Shown here piece by piece: positions 6,290-48,450 of a stretch of DNA of 64,000 nt; the first letter of the stretch is position 1, and every line of letters begins with the position of its first letter. The position numbers were made by a program, and so were the translations under genes. Under the pieces are notes generated by a model. That model ran no database searches. It saw only the letters and a list, made by a program, of their open reading frames with translations, and was not told the DNA's origin. The DNA comes from Rhizobium sp. Q54 (GTDB taxonomy: Bacteria; Pseudomonadota; Alphaproteobacteria; SHVZ01), in the NCBI GenBank assembly GCA_945871425.1, contig CAMBVS010000008.1:18325-82324 (forward strand), in the 5' to 3' direction.

Positions 6290-7054
6290 CTACTTCTTGG
6301 CAGCGCCGAGTTTGGCCGCCGCTTCGATGAACTTCTTCGCGTCCGGCGTGGGCGGCCCCTTGGTCACCAGAGCGAGCACCTGCTTGATCTCCGCTCCGGC
6401 GACGGGCGCCACCGCCGGCGTAATGCTGGCACCGTTGCCATAGCCGATGGCGTTCGGAGCCTGGGCGACGATCTGGGAGAGCTGGACGAAGCTCTGCACC
6501 GGGCGGGCCTTGTCGGTGATCTCGGTGCCGCCGAGGAACTGGTTGACCACGAGCGTGCGCTGCCCCAGGCCCTGGGCGGCGGTCACGACGATGATCGGCT
6601 GGTCGCCGCCGCCGACGTCCTTCCACGACGTGATCTTGCCGGTGAAGATGTCCTTGAGCTGAGCCTCGGTCAGCGCCTTGACCGGGTTGGAGGGGTGGAC
6701 GATGAACCTGAGGGTCTCGCCACCGACAGGCACCACCTCGAAGCCTTCGATGCTGATCGAGCCCGGGTTGGCCTTGTTCAGGTTGGCTTCGGTGAGCTTG
6801 ATCGGCGAGGCGACCATGGCGACGTCGGACTTGCCGGCGTAGAGGTCCTTGAGGCCGTTGCCGTCGCCGTTGACGATGACGTTGACCTTCAGGCCGGTTT
6901 CCTGCTCGATCGCCGCCTTGTTAGGGTTGACGACGCCGGCCGCCACGGTGGCGCTGCCGCTGATCTTCAGCTCGCCGGCAGCGAGCGCATCGCCGTTGGC
7001 CAACAGCAGGAACACGGCCCCGGCCATCAGCGCTTTCTGGAACATGCAAGACAT
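6290..7054 (-). CDS. Periplasmic PstS-like (PBP type 2) substrate-binding protein
   Basis: Signal peptide, then SGSATV and a PstS-family-like core (LKDIFTGKITSWKDVGG). It lies 60 nt upstream of the MCP on the same strand. Confidence 0.7.
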   Translation of the reverse strand: MSCMFQKALMAGAVFLLLANGDALAAGELKISGSATVAAGVVNPNKAAIEQETGLKVNVIVNGDGNGLKDLYAGKSDVAMVASPIKLTEANLNKANPGSISIEGFEVVPVGGETLRFIVHPSNPVKALTEAQLKDIFTGKITSWKDVGGGDQPIIVVTAAQGLGQRTLVVNQFLGGTEITDKARPVQSFVQLSQIVAQAPNAIGYGNGASITPAVAPVAGAEIKQVLALVTKGPPTPDAKKFIEAAAKLGAAKK

Positions 7055-11873: not shown

Positions 11874-11989
11874 GGGAGACCCTCGCGGCGATCGTGATCC
11901 GTCACCGCGAACAAAGGCTGAAGTCGTCCCTAGCGGGATCCGGCTCCGGTCTCCATCGGGGCACCCCGCCCAATGTGCTCGCGCGTGAC

Positions 11990-12160
11990 CACGGTGATGG
12001 CAGGTCTCCTGGCTTGCGGGTCCTTGCCTTGCGCCGCCTTCCCGGTTTCCCAGTGGCGTCTCGTGGCGCTCGGCTCGCCGCTCACAGTTGCGGGGGCAGC
12101 CGCGGCATCGGCCGAAGCCTTCACCGCGTTCCCATTCAATCCCCGAAGGGAACCATCGGC
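11990..12160 (-). promoter_or_regulatory. Cobalamin (AdoCbl) riboswitch
   Basis: On the minus strand the element has a P1 helix (GATGG...CCATC). It also has AATGGGAACGCGGTGAA, GCCCCCGCAACTGT, GCCACTGGGAAACCGGGAAGGC and the B12 box AAGCCAGGAGACCTGCC. Confidence 0.9.
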
Positions 12161-12208
12161 CGGGACCCTAGCGGGTGGGTCGGCGGCGCGTCAATCGACG
12201 AACCGGGA

Positions 12209-23854: not shown

Positions 23855-24247
23855 ATGCCGATTGCCCACCCGATCGAACTCGTGGATGCGAGCCCCGAGG
23901 TCCGCGCCGTCTTCGACGACATCATGGCGACCCGCAAGACCGACTGGGTCAATAATTTCTGGAAGGTCCTGGCGCATCACCCGCCGACGCTCAAGCGCAC
24001 CTGGGAGAGCGTGAAGGAGGTGATGGCGCCGGGCGCCCTCGATCCGCTGACCAAGGAGATGATCTACCTCGCCGTCAGCGTCACCAAGGGCTGCGAGTAC
24101 TGCATCGCCTCCCACACCGTGGCTGCCCGCGCCAAGGGCGCGAGCGAAGCCATGCTCGGCGAGCTGATGGCCGTCATCGGCATGGCCAACGAGACCAACG
24201 CGCTGGTGACCGGATACCAGGTCGAGGTCGACGAGCGGTTTCGGTAG
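23855..24247 (+). CDS. Carboxymuconolactone decarboxylase (AhpD-like) family protein
   Basis: 130 aa with a CxxC-type motif (KGCEYCIASH). Confidence 0.8.
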   Translation: MPIAHPIELVDASPEVRAVFDDIMATRKTDWVNNFWKVLAHHPPTLKRTWESVKEVMAPGALDPLTKEMIYLAVSVTKGCEYCIASHTVAARAKGASEAMLGELMAVIGMANETNALVTGYQVEVDERFR

Positions 24248-24320
24248 TAGCGGTAGCAAGCAGATTGCATGCGCTCACGCGCACCAGCGCCTAACCTGTC
24301 TGCCTGACGGAGGCTTCCTG

Positions 24321-25388
24321 ATGCCCGGCGTAGTGAAGCAACACCCCAAACGCGACTTCGGCCAAACCCTTAATGCTAGTCGCTACGATGACCCTCGCGG
24401 AGGGAGGGCGTCGGCTCTCGAGCGCAATATTCTGCGCTACAGGGCCACCGAAGCCACCATCTACCTCTTCTATGCTGAGGAGGTCCGCGACTTCATGCTG
24501 ACAGACGTCTACAAAGCAGCCGTCCGCAAACCGCATGAGGACATTTGGCGGGAGTCTGACGAACAGCGATTGCATCGAGTGCTCAACGATCTGCTGAGAG
24601 ATGCCGAGAAGAAGAAAAAACTTCCCGCTGGCGATGCTGAAGCGCTGCGGCGAACTTTCACAAGGGAACGTCATCAAGGCAGAAAGCTCAAAATCGCCCT
24701 CTCTTACGCGATCACAATCGGCATGTTCTCGGAAGCGGAGGCCGACGAAGTAAAATCGCTTCTGGACTACAGGAACGACATTGCGCACCGAATTCATCTG
24801 ATGATGTCAGACATCAGCCGGAATAGCTGGGCGGCTAGTCATTCTGCCTATGCTGCACCAACCTACAAAGGCGATGCGCTCGATCGCTTACGCGCGTACA
24901 GGCGCTCGTTATGGGAGCGAGCGAGTGGCAAATTTATTTTGACACTGTCTGGAGATCGCATCTTGTTCGAGCATGCCGAACACGTGTTCGAGCAAGACCT
25001 GAAACGCTTGGACCGTCTCATCAAGAGGCAGATTGGGAAGGACCGCGAACGATACGACGCAATCAGATCTGAACTAGATATGGAGGGCACGGAGTTTGTG
25101 GACGACCTTTCGCCACGCTTTCCTGCCAATCATCGGCCAGCCCGCCAAGGCTACGGAGATGACTACATTCCCGAGACGGGGCACCTCACAAAACGCGGAG
25201 TCGAAATCTGCTACCGACTTTTCGATTTAGGTAAAAGCCCGATTGCGGTCGCGTATCTAATGGGAATGACGCTTCGCTCCGCCGAAAGACGTCAACGGAG
25301 TTGGGTCGCGGCGGGCGGTCTTCAACGCGCGCGAGCAGAGGTCGAGCGTTATGATGTGCGCTCGATGCGACGGCTACCTCCGTCGTAG
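24321..25388 (+). CDS. Orphan protein in a low-G+C islet: HEPN-like RNxxAH motif plus C-terminal HTH
   Basis: The motif LLDYRNDIAHRIH lies at residues 147-159 (RNDIAH at nt 24771..24788), after an all-helical region of about 110 aa. The C-terminus LTKRGVEICYRLFDLGKSPIAVAYLMGMTLRSAERR resembles a LuxR/sigma-r4 HTH. Codon usage is visibly A/T-richer than in neighbouring genes. Confidence 0.6.
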   Translation: MPGVVKQHPKRDFGQTLNASRYDDPRGGRASALERNILRYRATEATIYLFYAEEVRDFMLTDVYKAAVRKPHEDIWRESDEQRLHRVLNDLLRDAEKKKKLPAGDAEALRRTFTRERHQGRKLKIALSYAITIGMFSEAEADEVKSLLDYRNDIAHRIHLMMSDISRNSWAASHSAYAAPTYKGDALDRLRAYRRSLWERASGKFILTLSGDRILFEHAEHVFEQDLKRLDRLIKRQIGKDRERYDAIRSELDMEGTEFVDDLSPRFPANHRPARQGYGDDYIPETGHLTKRGVEICYRLFDLGKSPIAVAYLMGMTLRSAERRQRSWVAAGGLQRARAEVERYDVRSMRRLPPS

Positions 25389-25419
25389 AGGACCCCGCGC
25401 GTGCAGCACAAAAGTATCC

Positions 25420-26886
25420 CTACTGGAACATCTCCCCCTTCGCGTCCTCGTCGAGCGGCCAGATCGGGCGGCGGAGCTTGGTAAAGGTGACCTTGCGGGG
25501 ATCGCCGGGATAGGGCCCGCCGCAGTCGACGTAGAGGATCTCGGCGGCGAACTTGGCGAAGGCGTCGTAGAAGTGGTTGCTCGACTTCACGATCACGATC
25601 TTCTTCCTGGTCGGATCGATGCCGACCACGGTGAAGAGCGAGGGGTCGAAGGTCTGGGAGCGGCTGGTCTTCAGCACCACCTCGATGCCGTGGACGCGGA
25701 TCGCGACCGCATCGCCCATCGGCACCACCGAGCCGCGGAAGGTCTGGGTGGCGTTCGGCACGCATTTCAGCACCTCGACCTCGGCGTCGATCGGCTCGCC
25801 GCCGTCGGGCGTGCATTTGCCGCCGAAGCGGAGCTTGAGCTTCGCCCCTGGGCCCGCCGCCATGCAGAAGCGGACCGCGATCGGGTCCCAGAGGGCGCCG
25901 AGGCAGGCGTCGGTGAAGCCGCGTTCGATCAGGCCCCTGAGCAGGAAGGTGCCGTCGCCGGCGACGCCGCCGCCGGGATTGTCCCAGCGGTCGGCGAGCA
26001 CGACCGGCCCCCTCGGCGCAGCGATCGCATGGTCCAGCGCCTCGTCGGTCTTGTGGTGCGGCGTGGCGCCGGTGACGCGGACGGAGTTGATCTCCTCGCC
26101 CAGCGCCCTGGCCAGCTTCGCGCCCGACTCGGGCCGGCCGTCGGTGATCACGATCACCTTGGTGCCCATCTCGGCGACGTCGGCGGCGGTGAAGCCGTGC
26201 GCGATGGTGATCGAGAGGATGCCGTCATGGCCCTCCATCGCCTTGATCCTGTCGACGAAGCTGCGGCCGGGCTCGCGGCTGGTCATGAATGCCGAGACCG
26301 AGCGGCAGTCGTAGACGCTCATCACCGGCTTGACCTCGCCGCGCGCGGCGCGAAGGCAGATCGACAGCAGCTCCTCCGCCCGGTCGGCGAAGTCGATATG
26401 CGGGAACTCCTTGAAGGCGATGAGCACGTTGGTCCCGGTCGTCATCTCGCGCGTGATGTGACAATGCATGTCGAGCTCGGCACCGATGATCGTCTTCGGG
26501 CCGACGATGGCGCGGCAGCGCTGGATCAGGTCGCCTTCGCAGTCGTCGTAGCCGTGGGCGACCATGGCGCCGTGCAGGCCCAGCAGCACGATGTCGACCG
26601 GCATCGCCGCCTTCAGCTGCCCCAGGATCTCATCGCGCAGCCCCTCGTAGACGCCGCGGTTGACCAGTCCGGCCGGGTCGGCCCAGGCCGCGGTGCCCTC
26701 GATCAGGGTGAAGCCGTCCTGACGCGCCCGCCGCCTGGCGATGGCGAGCGGTGCCGTGCACAGCGTCGGCTCCGGCGGATGCTCGCCGGGCTTGGCGTAC
26801 ATCCCCTCCCGGAACATCTCAAGGTCGGTCGGGATCGGCGCGAAGGTATTGGTTTCGGTCGCCAGCGCCGCGGCGAAGACACGCAT
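25420..26886 (-). CDS. M81-family metallopeptidase (MlrC-like)
   Basis: N-terminus MRVFAAALATETNTF, a GLHGAMV motif, and 488 aa, all typical of the MlrC family. Confidence 0.85.
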   Translation of the reverse strand: MRVFAAALATETNTFAPIPTDLEMFREGMYAKPGEHPPEPTLCTAPLAIARRRARQDGFTLIEGTAAWADPAGLVNRGVYEGLRDEILGQLKAAMPVDIVLLGLHGAMVAHGYDDCEGDLIQRCRAIVGPKTIIGAELDMHCHITREMTTGTNVLIAFKEFPHIDFADRAEELLSICLRAARGEVKPVMSVYDCRSVSAFMTSREPGRSFVDRIKAMEGHDGILSITIAHGFTAADVAEMGTKVIVITDGRPESGAKLARALGEEINSVRVTGATPHHKTDEALDHAIAAPRGPVVLADRWDNPGGGVAGDGTFLLRGLIERGFTDACLGALWDPIAVRFCMAAGPGAKLKLRFGGKCTPDGGEPIDAEVEVLKCVPNATQTFRGSVVPMGDAVAIRVHGIEVVLKTSRSQTFDPSLFTVVGIDPTRKKIVIVKSSNHFYDAFAKFAAEILYVDCGGPYPGDPRKVTFTKLRRPIWPLDEDAKGEMFQ

Positions 26887-26922: not shown

Positions 26923-28089
26923 CTAGAGGCCGACCGTGTCCAGGATCTCCTTCACCACCGCGGAACACTCGAAGTGGTCCTCGGCGATCTTGCGGGCGGC
27001 CTTGCGGTGAGTCTCGTAGTCGGCGTCGATGGCGTCCAGCGCCGCGATCGCCTGGCTGTGGTCGGTGAATGAGAAGAGGCCCTTCCCGGTCGGGATGATC
27101 TTCTCGAAGCCGGCCGACTGCATGATCACCGGCCGCCCGCTGGCGAGGTAGCAGACGCTGCGGTCGGAGAACCAACCGGACTTGGTGCGGACATAGATGT
27201 CCTTGGCCACCGTGAACTCGCCCCGCGAGCGGCGGACGAAGTCGGCATAGGAGTCCATGGTCTCCGATTGCACGGCGCCGTCCAGCACCCGCCAGCCGGC
27301 CTCCTCGACCTGGGCGTTGACCGAGGCATCGGGCGTGATCAGCGCCAGCTCGAACGCCCGACCGCTCCGCTTCGGCATGTCAAGGAACTTGAGGAAGTTG
27401 GTGTGCTTCGACCACTGGTAGGACTGGCCCTGCCAGCGGACGTTCTTGCCCTTGTTCTGCCAGGTGGCGACCGAGGTGAACGCCGCCGGCGCCGGGCGGC
27501 CGTCATAAGGCCAGAGCTCGAGGTCGACCGGCGGCCGCGTCGGCTTCCAGGGTCGCGTGCCGGCCGGGATCAGGCAGTCGGGCGAGCCGATGTTCTGGCC
27601 ATAGGTGAACAGGTGGGTGTGGGCGTCGACGAATTCGGTCGAGTAGGCGTCCTCCTGAGCGATCTTGATCTGCTCGTAGCCCGGATCGGTGTCGATCAGG
27701 ATGCGCACCGGGCAGGCCATGTGCTCGTCGCGCAGCTTGGTCGAGCCGCAGAGATTGATGAGCGCGTCGGCCTCGCCGTAGAGCGCCATCATCCGCTCGC
27801 GCCCGACGCCGGCCCAGCTGCCTTCCTTGACCGGATCCCAATAGCCCCAGCGGTCGCCCAACCCCAGGCGCTCCATCATCGCGCGGACATAGGCGATGTT
27901 GTACGTCGAGTCCCAGACCAGCTGGTTCTCCTTGGGCGAATATGGGTTCACCCCGTTGTCCTCGACGTACCAGACGTCGTGGCCGAGGCGCTTCAGCGCC
28001 GAGAGGTATTGCGTCGCCTGCCAGGCGATGCCGGCCAGCGGCATCTGGCCGACGAAGTGATGGACGAGGATGGTCTTCTTGCGGCTCAC
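26923..28089 (-). CDS. Glycosyltransferase-like protein (GT-B-like; C-terminus resembles Glyco_trans_1_2/DUF3880-type proteins)
   Basis: The N-terminus KKTILVHHFVGQMPLAGIAWQATQYLSALKRLGHDVWYVED and the C-terminus SGWFSDRSVCYLASGRPVIMQ...HRKAARKIAEDHF fit this family. The assignment is by eye only. Confidence 0.5.
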   Translation of the reverse strand: MSRKKTILVHHFVGQMPLAGIAWQATQYLSALKRLGHDVWYVEDNGVNPYSPKENQLVWDSTYNIAYVRAMMERLGLGDRWGYWDPVKEGSWAGVGRERMMALYGEADALINLCGSTKLRDEHMACPVRILIDTDPGYEQIKIAQEDAYSTEFVDAHTHLFTYGQNIGSPDCLIPAGTRPWKPTRPPVDLELWPYDGRPAPAAFTSVATWQNKGKNVRWQGQSYQWSKHTNFLKFLDMPKRSGRAFELALITPDASVNAQVEEAGWRVLDGAVQSETMDSYADFVRRSRGEFTVAKDIYVRTKSGWFSDRSVCYLASGRPVIMQSAGFEKIIPTGKGLFSFTDHSQAIAALDAIDADYETHRKAARKIAEDHFECSAVVKEILDTVGL

Positions 28090-45932: not shown

Positions 45933-48107
45933 CTAGAAGGCGAACCGCGTCAGCGGCACCTGCGTTCCGTTCGGAAGGGTCATCACGGCTGTCGTCCGCG
46001 AAGAGAATGTGATCGTCACCGTCCCTCGGCTAACCGACGCAGTCGGCGCCTGATACGTTCCGGTTAACGTCTGCCCGCCGGAGAATTCAGTCAGCGTTCC
46101 CTGAAAGGAGCGAGGGGTCGTCATCGCGTTGGCAGCCACGTACCAGTTCGCTTGGCCGGAGTCGCCGTACATGTAGGCGCTGAGAAACATCGTCGCCCCT
46201 TGGATCTCCATGAAGAATCCACGGCCGGACTCCGACGCGTTCCACCACCATCCGGTCTCGGGCGCGTCGACCGACACGCCTTGGGTCACGCCCCCGGTCA
46301 CGGCGTCGTACCTGGAGATGCCGATGGTACCGCCCGGCCAGGTCAGAGTTCCGGCTCTTGAATTGCTGAATTCCAGCGCGATGGAACCCGGCGAGCCCGC
46401 CAAATTCGGATTGCGATGCGCACCCGAGAGCGTCTGGCCGTTCTCGAACTGCGCGAGCGCCCCCGAATAGGAGGTGCCGGACGTAGCGCCGCTGGAAACG
46501 AACCACACGGGTGAGCCGTCGGCTGCATAGAGATACGAAGACAGAAATACATTGCTACCGCGCTGCTCGATCGAATAGCCGCGGCCGCTTTCGGCGCTAT
46601 TCCACCACCACCCGGTCTGCGGCTTGATCGCAACCGTCGTCGGATACGTGGCGATCGGCTCGAAGACCGCGAACTTCACCTGGTTGTAGCGCGGTGGTGG
46701 ATTCGGTGGATTGACGGTATGGCGATAAGGTACGAGAAACCAGACTCGTCCGTCATTCATCATGTCGATGGGAATGGGCCCGTACTGGATGGTGAGAGAC
46801 CCGCCGTTGGCTTCTGAGAACCTGTGGAGCGGGAAGAAGTCGGTAGGCGTCGATGCGAACACGCCGGAGCCGTTGTTGATCAGGACAATCGGCCGATTCA
46901 AATTGGCGCAACAGCCACCGACGCTGAACGGCATGATCAGCAGGTCGGTATGGCCGTCGCGATTGAAGTCGAACGGCTTGATGAATTTGATCCAGCCTCC
47001 GTTCCAGGCCAGCACGCCCCCTCCCCGCGTAGCGCTCTCATCGGTGAAGGTGCCGCTGCCGTTGTTGACGAGGATCTGCAGGCATGCGTCCACGGAATAG
47101 GGATTGGCCTTGGCCTGGGAGACCAGCAAATCGATCGCACCGTCCCCATTGATGTCGATCGGCAAGATATCTATGGCCGAAGTGTTGAGTGTGCCGCCGG
47201 CGGTGTCGTAGCAGCCGATCGGAAGTGACACGGCCGTTGAGCTAGCGAAACTGCCTTGACGATTGTTGAGGTAGATCCGGCCGCTTCCGCCCGAAGATGA
47301 ATCGCGACCTCCTAGGATGAGGTCAGGGTAGCTGTCGCCATCGACGTCCGCCAAGGCCGAAGCAGAAGCTTGGTAGATGTTGCTGCCCGTGGTTGCGGTT
47401 AGTGCCGCCGGAAGCCTCGCGCGGTTCAGCGTGAAATTTCCGGCCCCGTCGTTGAGCAAAAGATACGACGGTGTCGTGCTGGTGAGGTTGCCGACAAAGA
47501 TGTGCGGTACGCCGTCGCCGTTGATCGCACCGACGCCCAAAGAATGGGTGAAGTTCGCGACTTGCGGAAGTATCGTGCTCCGATTGACCAATGGCCCGGC
47601 GGCCGACAACAGCAGCCCGCCGGTCTCTCCCGGAAAAGGCGACGTGTCGATGCCGTGATTGCCGATATAGACGTCGAGCTTTCCATCGCCATTGAAGTCG
47701 GCAACCTTCATGACGCGGTTGTATACAACGGTAGGAGCGCCTCCGGTCATCGTCGCGTTTCCGCTGGCGAAAGTGCCGTTACCCTGATTGATCAGGATGG
47801 CCAGCTCGCGCGACCGATAGTCGCTGGTGCTCGATCCTGAGCCACGTATCTCGACCAGTCCGTACACGACGTCGGGAAGGCCGTCGCCGTTTACATCCAC
47901 GACCGCGTAGTCGCCCCAGGATGGCCGAAAGCCGTTCGTCGCGTCCCCGAAAACGCCGGTGGTGATGGTTGGACCAACGTCATCGCGAATTGTGAAATAC
48001 TGCGAGAACGTCGAGCTGTCGACCACCCAGGACTGAGCTTCGGACGATCCGGGTGCGAACACCCGCGACAGACCGACGAGGACCGACAGGACCTTTGGCA
48101 GCTTCAC
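45933..48107 (-). CDS. Secreted FG-GAP/VCBS-repeat protein with a tandemly duplicated C-terminal GWWWN-ESGRG domain
   Basis: Repeats include DVNGDGLPDVVYG, ADFNGDGKLDVYIG, ADVDGDSYPDLILGG, DINGDGAIDLLVS and FDFNRDGHTDLLI. A GTG start at 48107 lies behind a GAGGGAG SD and gives a signal peptide. G+C is visibly lower than in flanking DNA. Confidence 0.8.
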   Translation of the reverse strand: MKLPKVLSVLVGLSRVFAPGSSEAQSWVVDSSTFSQYFTIRDDVGPTITTGVFGDATNGFRPSWGDYAVVDVNGDGLPDVVYGLVEIRGSGSSTSDYRSRELAILINQGNGTFASGNATMTGGAPTVVYNRVMKVADFNGDGKLDVYIGNHGIDTSPFPGETGGLLLSAAGPLVNRSTILPQVANFTHSLGVGAINGDGVPHIFVGNLTSTTPSYLLLNDGAGNFTLNRARLPAALTATTGSNIYQASASALADVDGDSYPDLILGGRDSSSGGSGRIYLNNRQGSFASSTAVSLPIGCYDTAGGTLNTSAIDILPIDINGDGAIDLLVSQAKANPYSVDACLQILVNNGSGTFTDESATRGGGVLAWNGGWIKFIKPFDFNRDGHTDLLIMPFSVGGCCANLNRPIVLINNGSGVFASTPTDFFPLHRFSEANGGSLTIQYGPIPIDMMNDGRVWFLVPYRHTVNPPNPPPRYNQVKFAVFEPIATYPTTVAIKPQTGWWWNSAESGRGYSIEQRGSNVFLSSYLYAADGSPVWFVSSGATSGTSYSGALAQFENGQTLSGAHRNPNLAGSPGSIALEFSNSRAGTLTWPGGTIGISRYDAVTGGVTQGVSVDAPETGWWWNASESGRGFFMEIQGATMFLSAYMYGDSGQANWYVAANAMTTPRSFQGTLTEFSGGQTLTGTYQAPTASVSRGTVTITFSSRTTAVMTLPNGTQVPLTRFAF

Positions 48108-48450
48108 GGTGCGGCTCCCTCGAATGCTAGAGACGGTATCCGCCAGGTCGAAAGAGACGCCGGCGGCGTCGGGCATGCCAGGCGTTCCAGAATGAACTCG
48201 ATGCGGCAGGAGGCTCGACCTACTCGCCCGCTCTGGCATCATCCGGTTGGATGACTTGCGCGAGGACGCACCGCGCGGCGCAACGGCTATTGGAGCAGGC
48301 CGGCCGAACACGTCGCGAATAGTCGCAAGAACGGTGTCTGAATGGGTACGAATTGCCGTCTGTCTCTACTGGAAATCGGCCCTGGCCTGGGACTCTGGCC
48401 GAGCCGAGCCGGCTCTCCTGGCCCGGGAGAGCGACCGGCGTCGTGCTTTC

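Follow-up and report, generated by a model that had tools for sequence, protein, structure and literature searches.

The 64-kb stretch of Rhizobium sp. Q54 DNA analysed here (the window) contains an islet of low G+C content (GC) at 24248-25418, lying between a CMD/AhpD-like gene and an MlrC-like gene and holding one 355-aa open reading frame (ORF). The islet is a horizontally acquired single-gene insertion, because the same site is empty in two close relatives and occupied by other cargo in two more, and because its composition is foreign. The encoded protein very probably belongs to the HEPN superfamily as a new family. We predict, at slightly better than even probability, that the gene is a horizontally acquired single-chain HEPN RNase-helix-turn-helix (HTH) conflict effector. 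That mobile elements and defence islands carry HEPN RNases is well known; what is new here is the widespread, unmodelled and unnamed family itself, together with its fixed slot on an integrative and conjugative element (ICE), its recurrent adjacency to Hachiman and Lamassu genes, and a clean polymorphism of empty, filled and alternative-cargo sites.

A single-gene insertion at the CMD/MlrC junction

Scanning metagenome contigs with MlrC as the query gave four close relatives of the segment (L043, L044, L045 and L046). L043 and L044 are empty sites. Their identity to the window is 94-95% in MlrC, 92-96% in the gene next to it and 89% in the histidine kinase; the CMD and MlrC genes abut stop to stop, 4-19 nt apart, and BLASTN found no ORF remnant in the CMD-MlrC junction of either. 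The other two carry unrelated cargo at the same junction, a 1.6-kb insert in L046 (MlrC 90%) and ~3.3 kb in L045 (MlrC 91%), where CMD is lost. The CMD/MlrC junction is therefore a variable hotspot. The left end of the insertion is the CMD stop (24245-24248), homology to L043 and L044 stopping at 24244; the right end, at 25418/25419, precedes the MlrC stop by one base, with homology to L043 and L046 restarting at 25419. The inserted segment is thus 24245/24248-25418. When the window DNA was compared with relatives of the gene elsewhere, similarity was limited to the ORF (24321-25382), and the leader was not common to them.

The composition of the islet (1,171 nt) sets it apart from its surroundings. 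Its GC is 0.562, a z-score of -3.95 against the 1-kb windows used as the baseline (mean 0.674, standard deviation 0.028), and the lowest-GC kilobase of all 64 kb falls inside it. GC runs at 0.52-0.57 across 24350-25250 and at ~0.68-0.70 on both sides. At third codon positions, the 355-aa ORF has a GC (GC3) of 0.61, compared with 0.92 in the CMD neighbour and 0.94 in the MlrC neighbour; against the 43 native-looking ORFs (0.897 +/- 0.036) this is a z-score of -7.9. An earlier note on this DNA, made from the letters of the sequence, had described a single 355-aa ORF in an islet with a GC judged by eye to be in the mid-50s percent against the high-60s of the flanks, had found no MNT antitoxin, integrase or flanking repeat, and had proposed windowed composition, codon usage and a comparison of empty with filled sites as ways to check for horizontal acquisition. 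The calculations and the relatives bear out all of these points, and the coordinates given there for the islet agree with the junctions mapped against the empty sites.

The features of the locus and of the gene are as follows.

23855-24247, forward strand: left flank, native CMD/AhpD-like gene (130 aa; PF02627)
24248-24320, forward strand: 73-nt leader, with the ribosome-binding site GGAGG at 24309-24313
24321-25388, forward strand: 355-aa ORF (P0001), HEPN-like plus HTH protein
24381-24935, forward strand: all-helical N-terminal domain, predicted HEPN-like catalytic (aa 21-205; from AlphaFold2, conservation and profiles)
24528-24680, forward strand: clade-specific helical insertion (aa 70-120; column occupancy 0.09-0.61 in 75 sequences)
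24771-24788, forward strand: predicted active-site motif R151-N-D-I-A-H156 (Rx4H), LLDYRNDIAHRIH
24954-25115, forward strand: long helix and linker (aa 212-265; AlphaFold2 helix 212-252)
25179-25310, forward strand: C-terminal three-helix HTH (aa 287-330; from AlphaFold2 and profiles), GHLTKRGVEICYRLFDLGKSPIAVAYLMGMTLRSAERRQRSW
25420-26886, reverse strand: right flank, native MlrC-like gene (488 aa; PF07364 and PF07171), convergent with the 355-aa ORF

The Pfam domains of the two neighbours were read from identical contigs. The GGAGG lies 7 nt ahead of the ATG, and the N-terminus MPG(V/F)xK is common to the window protein and its homologs. Sixteen metagenome contigs encode exactly this protein, with the same context at all four places listed and at two more listed as similar.

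No integrase, MNT antitoxin, tRNA, or flanking direct or inverted repeat was found in the islet and its flanks, and no repeats around the islet exceeded chance-level 10-20-mers. A consensus scan of the islet, which was biased towards sigma-70, gave no sigma-70-like promoter or intrinsic terminator, and an Rfam scan gave no structured RNA in it. A transposon- or integron-like insertion was ruled out by the lack of flanking repeats, integrase and tRNA. The empty sites in relatives ruled out a native gene of odd composition, and a toxin beside its own antitoxin was ruled out in that the islet has neither room nor a gene for one. For the insertion itself, homologous recombination through the conserved flanks is our guess.

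Some further observations concern this junction. The L046 cargo (L046:6499-7928) consists of an HTH-ParA-like ATPase (AAA_31/CbiA, 350 aa) and a 149-aa protein, and the L045 cargo (L045:3120-6400) of a ~700-aa patatin-like protein and a 329-aa membrane protein. PADLOC gave weak matches or none on both, and they may be uncharacterised conflict cassettes. The string GCACAAA(A)G stands before the MlrC stop in the window (25406-25419) and in L046 (~6468-6480, reverse) and is absent from the empty sites; it could be there by chance, or be a relic of an ancestral filled state or of cargo swapping. Beside MlrC, the window has a native 388-aa gene (26923-28089, reverse strand) with no Pfam domain on record, which is 89-96% identical in related contigs.

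The predicted HEPN-like domain and the HTH module

The HEPN assignment starts from the R151-H156 motif. HEPN proteins are defined by an Rx4-6H motif with a polar N, D or H after the R, usually with a conserved acidic residue upstream, typically as Ex3[KR] and close to the motif in space (PMC3710099). The window protein shows Rx4H and N152 directly after the arginine. Its candidate for the upstream acidic residue is E34, which lies with R41 in helix 1, at a spacing that differs from Ex3[KR]. In an alignment of 75 family representatives (24-50% identity), no columns are invariant except R151 and H156; R41 is kept in 99%, N152 in 97% and E34 in 95%. The residues conserved family-wide in the N-terminal domain are E34, R41, R151, N152, H156 and D164. 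In the 31 sequences of the long clade, Y150, R151, N152, A155, H156 and R157 are invariant, as is E140. Of 48 further sequences, 47 retain RNxxxH as well, and the remaining one has an internal deletion.

Profile comparisons of the family point in the same direction. When the 75 members were scanned one by one against Pfam, the matches were HepT-like in 46, RiboL-PSP-HEPN in 32, MAE_28990-HEPN in 22, DUF4145 in 16 and Swt1-HEPN in 9; the best HepT-like match is weak (E 6.8e-5) and below curated thresholds. The largest non-HEPN family in these scans was HTH_23 (7/75). A search of the family profile against PDB sequences placed YutE and three HepT toxins in the top four positions (E 0.002-0.008), with alignments that span the helix-RNxxxH-helix core. 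In hhalign, the family aligned to the DUF86/HepT alignment at a probability of 70.8% (E 3.8e-5, 48 columns) with the R and H in register, the HepT set consisting of short DUF86 entries and the comparison covering the catalytic half only. The AlphaFold2 models are wholly helical, with a pLDDT of 70.5 at full length and 84.9 for the domain (residues 28-205), which has seven helices. The RNxxAH motif reported in the earlier note is present at R151-H156 (24771-24788), the R and H that it wished to see conserved are conserved, and the HEPN affinity that it proposed to look for by profile search emerges from the per-member Pfam scans, the PDB profile search and hhalign alike.

The best profile matches of the family are to HepT/DUF86 (PF01934), the toxin of the type VII MntA-HepT system (PDB 5yep, 6m6u and 7bxo), and to YutE of B. 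subtilis (1ylm). The likeness consists of a helix, the string G-x-[IL]-t-x-e-x-a-x-x-l-x-x-l-x-x-RN-x-x-x-H and a second helix, with the motif in register. The differences are nevertheless considerable. HepT has about 130-145 aa, whereas the window protein has 355 aa and adds a conserved N-terminal helix, the clade-specific insertion, the long linker helix and the C-terminal HTH. In place of the HDY of HepT (RNIAVHDY), the window protein has HRI, with no tyrosine two residues past the histidine, and the family consensus after the motif histidine, H-[RHDQE]-[ILVM]-x, likewise has no Tyr at +2. In the matched HepT structures, Y104 occupies this HxY position, which we take to be the AMPylation site. 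The annotated contexts of the family contain no MNT partner gene, the window neighbours being CMD and MlrC. In addition, the window protein is below the Pfam threshold, with no match to PF01934 at E <= 10, and shows no significant structural superposition. Thus, with no MNT partner, no Tyr at H+2 and the family model not passed, the window protein is outside HepT/DUF86. The matches to RiboL-PSP-HEPN (PF18735), MAE_28990-HEPN (PF18737), DUF4145 (PF13643) and Swt1-HEPN (PF18731) are recurrent, sub-threshold and centred on the Rx4H helix, and the rest of the window sequence is unrelated to these four families. For DUF4145 proteins, fusions to a sigma-type HTH and restriction-modification or Abi contexts have been recorded (PMC3710099); a HEPN-HTH fusion thus has a precedent there.

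In the 75-sequence alignment, the N-terminal domain is made up of the conserved helix 1 (aa 21-67, with E34 and R41) and the motif-bearing core (aa 121-205). The insertion between them (aa 70-120) is absent from a subfamily of ~270-300 aa. The linker has F216, E220, D226, L230 and P265 as conserved residues, and the HTH has G293, L300 and W328. The earlier note had likened the C-terminus to a LuxR/sigma-region-4 HTH, which agrees with the AlphaFold2 helices (291-302, 307-314 and 318-330) and with the profile matches among the 75 members, namely HTH_23 in seven (best 6.8e-5), Sigma70_r4_2 in two and GerE in one. Foldseek matched the HTH weakly to the LuxR-type DNA-binding domain of LiaR (TMt ~0.5, probability 0.3-0.47, E ~7), and the isolated C-terminus gave no Pfam match. 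The C-terminus is likely a generic tri-helical HTH.

The linker-plus-HTH module is also found free-standing, as proteins of 107-128 aa in Rhizobiales, Caulobacterales, Sphingomonadales, Pseudomonas and Rhizobium plasmids. These have the consensus DPxDPxNK...LTxRGVEICYRLFD... and are homologous only to the linker-plus-HTH part. They are represented by loci L031-L042 (for example L036:7812-8165, L041:7809-8165 and L031:7908-8237), and one lies on plasmid NZ_CP013558 at 46115-46468. The stand-alone module matches no Pfam or PHROG family and has no conserved neighbour among 11 loci.

Carriers and neighbourhoods of the family

A word-indexed search gave 198 homologs; the best 120, at 54-78% identity, nearly all have the full length of ~355 aa, a few being shorter partial entries. 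HMMER, run against 1.84 billion cluster representatives (50% clustering), gave 301 family representatives at E <= 1e-3. A profile search widened the family to about 30% identity. Many of the 301 have 270-300 aa and align over ~120-343 plus helix 1. There is no Pfam, NCBIfam, PADLOC or PHROG model for the family among the curated models, and all members are annotated as hypothetical without a precomputed Pfam domain, with one exception, an Acetobacter musti homolog that carries the UniRef label 'Apea-like HEPN' (PF18739). That label was not reproduced, the model matching 3 of the 75 members with a best E of 0.054. In the literature, we found neither this family nor any accessory HEPN-HTH protein of Hachiman or Lamassu described. 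The named hosts in the Alphaproteobacteria include Pedomonas, Hartmannibacter, Acetobacter, Terripilifer, Brevundimonas, Shinella, Sphingomonas and others; the named carriers outside this class are a single Marispirochaeta genome and a single Citrobacter plasmid.

The family travels as mobilome cargo. At 19 of 23 genome loci the gene is poorer in GC than the DNA on either side, five of them showing a difference of 0.10-0.21. The nearest relatives, with 78% identity, sit on an ICE-like backbone with the order AAA_34 helicase, DUF7146-Toprim, YAcAr, HNH_5, family gene, DUF736, HTH_3, RovC/DUF2285-type regulators, HTH_17, RepA and ParA. ICE or plasmid backbones carry the family in L055-L057 and L060, another near relative adjoins TraG/VirD4 and MobA/MobL, and a 27%-identical member occupies the same backbone slot on an IncC conjugative plasmid of Citrobacter freundii. 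A family member or the C-terminal module is present in nine plasmid records, eight of them conjugative or mobilizable. The family had no match among 50,697 phage records, which ruled out a phage origin.

In a neighbour-joining tree, the window copy is sister to the clade with the ICE backbone and HNH_5. In this closest clade, the family gene has a 338-aa HNH_5 gene divergently upstream. Three loci have it intact and three in degraded form; the window has none. The intact copies are L055:4673-5689, L056:4672-5688 and L053:6660-7685, all on the reverse strand, and frameshifted or truncated remnants are in L007, L052 and L057. The HNH_5 protein may be a former partner or a mere co-resident of the ICE slot.

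Several copies of the family gene themselves look decayed. One (L007:8001-9050) has a premature stop after 117 aa, one on a Sphingobium plasmid (L062; NZ_CP016455 24350-25261) is split into three small ORFs, the RNxxxH segment is missing from P0293, and another copy (L006:8001-9335) reads through to 444 aa. Such turnover is typical of dispensable cargo.

In other genomes, more distant members of the family sit beside Hachiman, Lamassu and Upx genes that PADLOC confirms, as a rule in the orientation of these defence genes and, with Hachiman- or Lamassu-type operons, at the 3' end. In L005, which is from Terripilifer ovatus, Hachiman HamA1 and HamB1 (367 and 1,613 PADLOC bits) end 13 nt upstream of the family gene, and a NERD/STAND protein follows on the downstream side. 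In L015 and L009, a divergent HamB-like helicase (158 bits) is found upstream, and in L027 a HamB-like helicase is followed by Lamassu LmuA and LmuB (202 and 689 bits), which end 15 nt upstream. Of 19 long-clade loci, 5 have a HamB-like helicase gene upstream and in the same orientation, with gaps of 13-22 nt in L005 and L015. The tree places the HamB-linked members in two separate clades, and their HamB partners share as little as 24-26% identity with one another; the Hachiman linkage is therefore recurrent rather than one inherited island. Upx (880 bits) and an integrase are near the gene in L016, and STAND-type NTPases in L010 and L011. HamA (DUF1837) and the HamB helicase are absent from the window islet and its flanks.

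Other neighbourhoods add observations of their own. In L021, L022 and L026, the family gene is in a tight operon with a Swt1-HEPN protein that matches the PADLOC candidate PDC-M34B (43 bits). The order is a 393-413-aa protein of unknown type, the 385-aa Swt1-like HEPN protein and a short-subfamily member (L021:5663-8906, L022:2348-5651 and L026:5603-8906), with gaps of 4 nt in L021 and L022 and 64 nt before the called start in L026. Two HEPN proteins thus occur together in this operon, one copy of which is on an Allorhizobium plasmid. A ~1,110-aa protein with NERD and STAND/IstB-like NTPase parts adjoins the family in L005:9320-12670, L006:9320-12670 and L054:9124-12444, on the same strand in two of the loci and convergent in one; it matches no PADLOC model and may be an uncharacterised STAND-type defence protein. 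On a conjugative plasmid of R. leguminosarum (L058; CP007070.1 242655-251503), a short-subfamily member is last in a same-strand run annotated as an SMC-like protein, an AAA ATPase, a dGTPase and three hypotheticals. Since dGTPases are known anti-phage genes, this run may be a composite defence locus.

The predicted effector function and its alternatives

For a single-chain HEPN RNase-HTH conflict effector, a mechanism can be proposed from what is established for HEPN enzymes (PMC3710099). As in others of these enzymes, a composite, metal-independent RNase site would arise from the pairing of two HEPN domains, and the enzyme would be held restrained until an invading phage or a rival element is sensed. 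Once activated, it would cut cellular or invader RNA, so that growth stops and replication of the invader is aborted. The HTH would supply nucleic-acid binding, for auto-repression, for tethering or for sensing foreign DNA. For the window protein, dimerisation, RNase activity, the trigger, toxicity and a defence phenotype are all predictions by analogy.

Known systems offer parallels to this arrangement. The Abi genes AbiD/F, AbiJ, AbiU2 and AbiV, in the form modelled by PADLOC, share in concept with the window gene a single polypeptide, a HEPN RNase-type motif, mobile carriage and no antitoxin, and AbiJ pairs its HEPN domain with a separate N-terminal domain. In contrast, the HTH of the window protein is C-terminal, no PADLOC model matches it, and its family is centred on the Alphaproteobacteria and borne on ICEs, whereas the Abi genes are on lactococcal plasmids. 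HEPN endoRNases appended on the same strand to BREX and BREX-related operons have been read as second-line suicide effectors (PMC12839542). There, too, the HEPN gene is at the edge of the operon, a placement analogous to that after the Hachiman and Lamassu genes; the differences are the Hachiman and Lamassu hosts, another HEPN family, and the frequent lack of any defence operon beside the window family.

Several results weigh against an effector of this kind. The best Pfam match of the window protein itself, to RiboL-PSP-HEPN (PF18735), covers 20 residues around the motif and scores 14.8 bits against a gathering cut-off of 28.4. Searches with the window protein gave no NCBIfam, PADLOC (E <= 10) or PHROG match, and no usable match among PDB sequences. 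Foldseek gave no significant match for the full-length model against PDB, nor for the domain model against PDB and BFVD: the best E was 1.3 for full-length and domain models alike, with no match at E < 0.7 in PDB/BFVD, and HepT/YutE chains fill 10 of the top 40 PDB places at TM 0.25-0.33. Of the HEPN fold envisaged in the earlier note, the all-helical character is thus seen in the AlphaFold2 models, and a significant structural match to a HEPN protein is not. A solitary, constitutively active RNase should moreover be toxic, and yet there is no antitoxin or partner gene here. Lastly, the adjacency to defence islands is circumstantial, many contexts being plain ICE or plasmid backbone. The earlier note had regarded the gene as a solitary HEPN-HTH defence candidate; the domain identity and the horizontal origin have gained support, and for a defence or abortive-infection function the analysis adds inference from context only.

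Other explanations of the same data have to be weighed. The protein might be a regulator of mobile elements, whose HTH binds operators on ICEs, plasmids and defence operons and whose HEPN-like domain, an RNA- or ligand-binding or processing module, tunes expression instead of acting as a suicide effector. Such a role would suit the fixed slot beside the conjugative regulatory block (DUF736, HTH_3, DUF2285/RovC-type, HTH_17, RepA and ParA), which recurs in Alphaproteobacteria and on the Citrobacter IncC plasmid. It would also suit the existence of the C-terminal module by itself, many genomes and plasmids encoding it as an HTH protein of 107-128 aa, and the position of members at the 3' end of differing defence operons, where accessory regulators are often found. 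On the other hand, invariance across the family is confined to the catalytic-type R and H and extends to no HTH residue, and the window copy is solitary in the chromosome, with no element or defence operon to regulate and no operator-like repeat upstream. We regard a regulator as unlikely, though to be taken seriously. Somewhat less probable again is that the family constitutes a portable plug-in module that has been recruited repeatedly by unrelated defence operons and by the conjugative backbone, with a C-terminal sensor unleashing the RNase. The recruiters would be two divergent Hachiman lineages, one Lamassu locus and the conjugative-element backbone, and the C-terminal module, a homolog of the small stand-alone HTH proteins of plasmids and ICEs, would recognise DNA of the invading element or heterodimerise with the small HTH protein that the invader itself encodes. 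If so, what this single-chain effector detects would be conjugative elements and not phages, and its recruitment a general route by which defence operons gain a second-line RNase.

The carriage of the nearest relatives on an ICE-like backbone, beside TraG and MobA genes, and the mobility of eight of nine plasmid matches would also fit an addiction or stabilisation toxin of conjugative elements, one that acts by post-segregational killing or exclusion of rivals, restrains itself in cis, perhaps through auto-repression by the HTH or through an intramolecular lock, and has here become stranded in the chromosome once transferred. The HepT-like profile affinity, which ties the family to type VII toxins, and the absence of the family from the 50,697 phage records fit this as well. 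We nonetheless consider it improbable: no antitoxin such as MNT is adjacent in the contexts examined, the HepT tyrosine two residues past the motif histidine is absent (RNDIAHRIH), and 16 contigs carry the chromosomal copy intact and in identical form, which is unexpected for a stranded toxin without control. The least probable of the explanations is that the protein is a facultative third component of Hachiman-type (HamA/HamB) systems, a backup effector or sensor that needs the helicase to act, so that the window copy would be orphaned and of little function. It is favoured by the same-strand HamB-like helicase upstream in 5 of 19 long-clade loci and by the recurrence of this linkage in two clades with HamB partners down to 24-26% identity; but the other 14 loci, including those of all the nearest relatives, have no HamB-like gene, in L027 the Lamassu pair sits between the helicase and the family gene, and purifying selection on the solitary copy is evident, all of its invariant residues being intact.

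Defining the family would fill an annotation gap in the ICE cargo and defence islands of rhizobia, sphingomonads and caulobacters, as it spans the Alphaproteobacteria and reaches gammaproteobacterial plasmids. If the predicted HEPN RNase-HTH effector is active and silent without a partner gene, its self-restraint would be informative for HEPN biology. The repeated position of the family behind Hachiman and Lamassu operons is relevant to the way in which defence systems gain backup effectors. A single junction that is empty, filled or occupied by other cargo amounts to a natural experiment, with matched backgrounds in which to look for a phenotype.

Two observations lie elsewhere in the window. 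A full-length cobalamin riboswitch (RF00174, 108.6 bits) at 11982-12172 on the reverse strand is its sole Rfam match. The second-lowest GC stretch (0.59-0.60, at ~46.3-47.1 kb) lies within a ~790-aa ORF (45933-48311, reverse strand), where repeated D-x-[ND]-G-D-G motifs of the FG-GAP/VCBS-like kind suggest a secreted or surface repeat protein, and this ORF may be another acquired gene.

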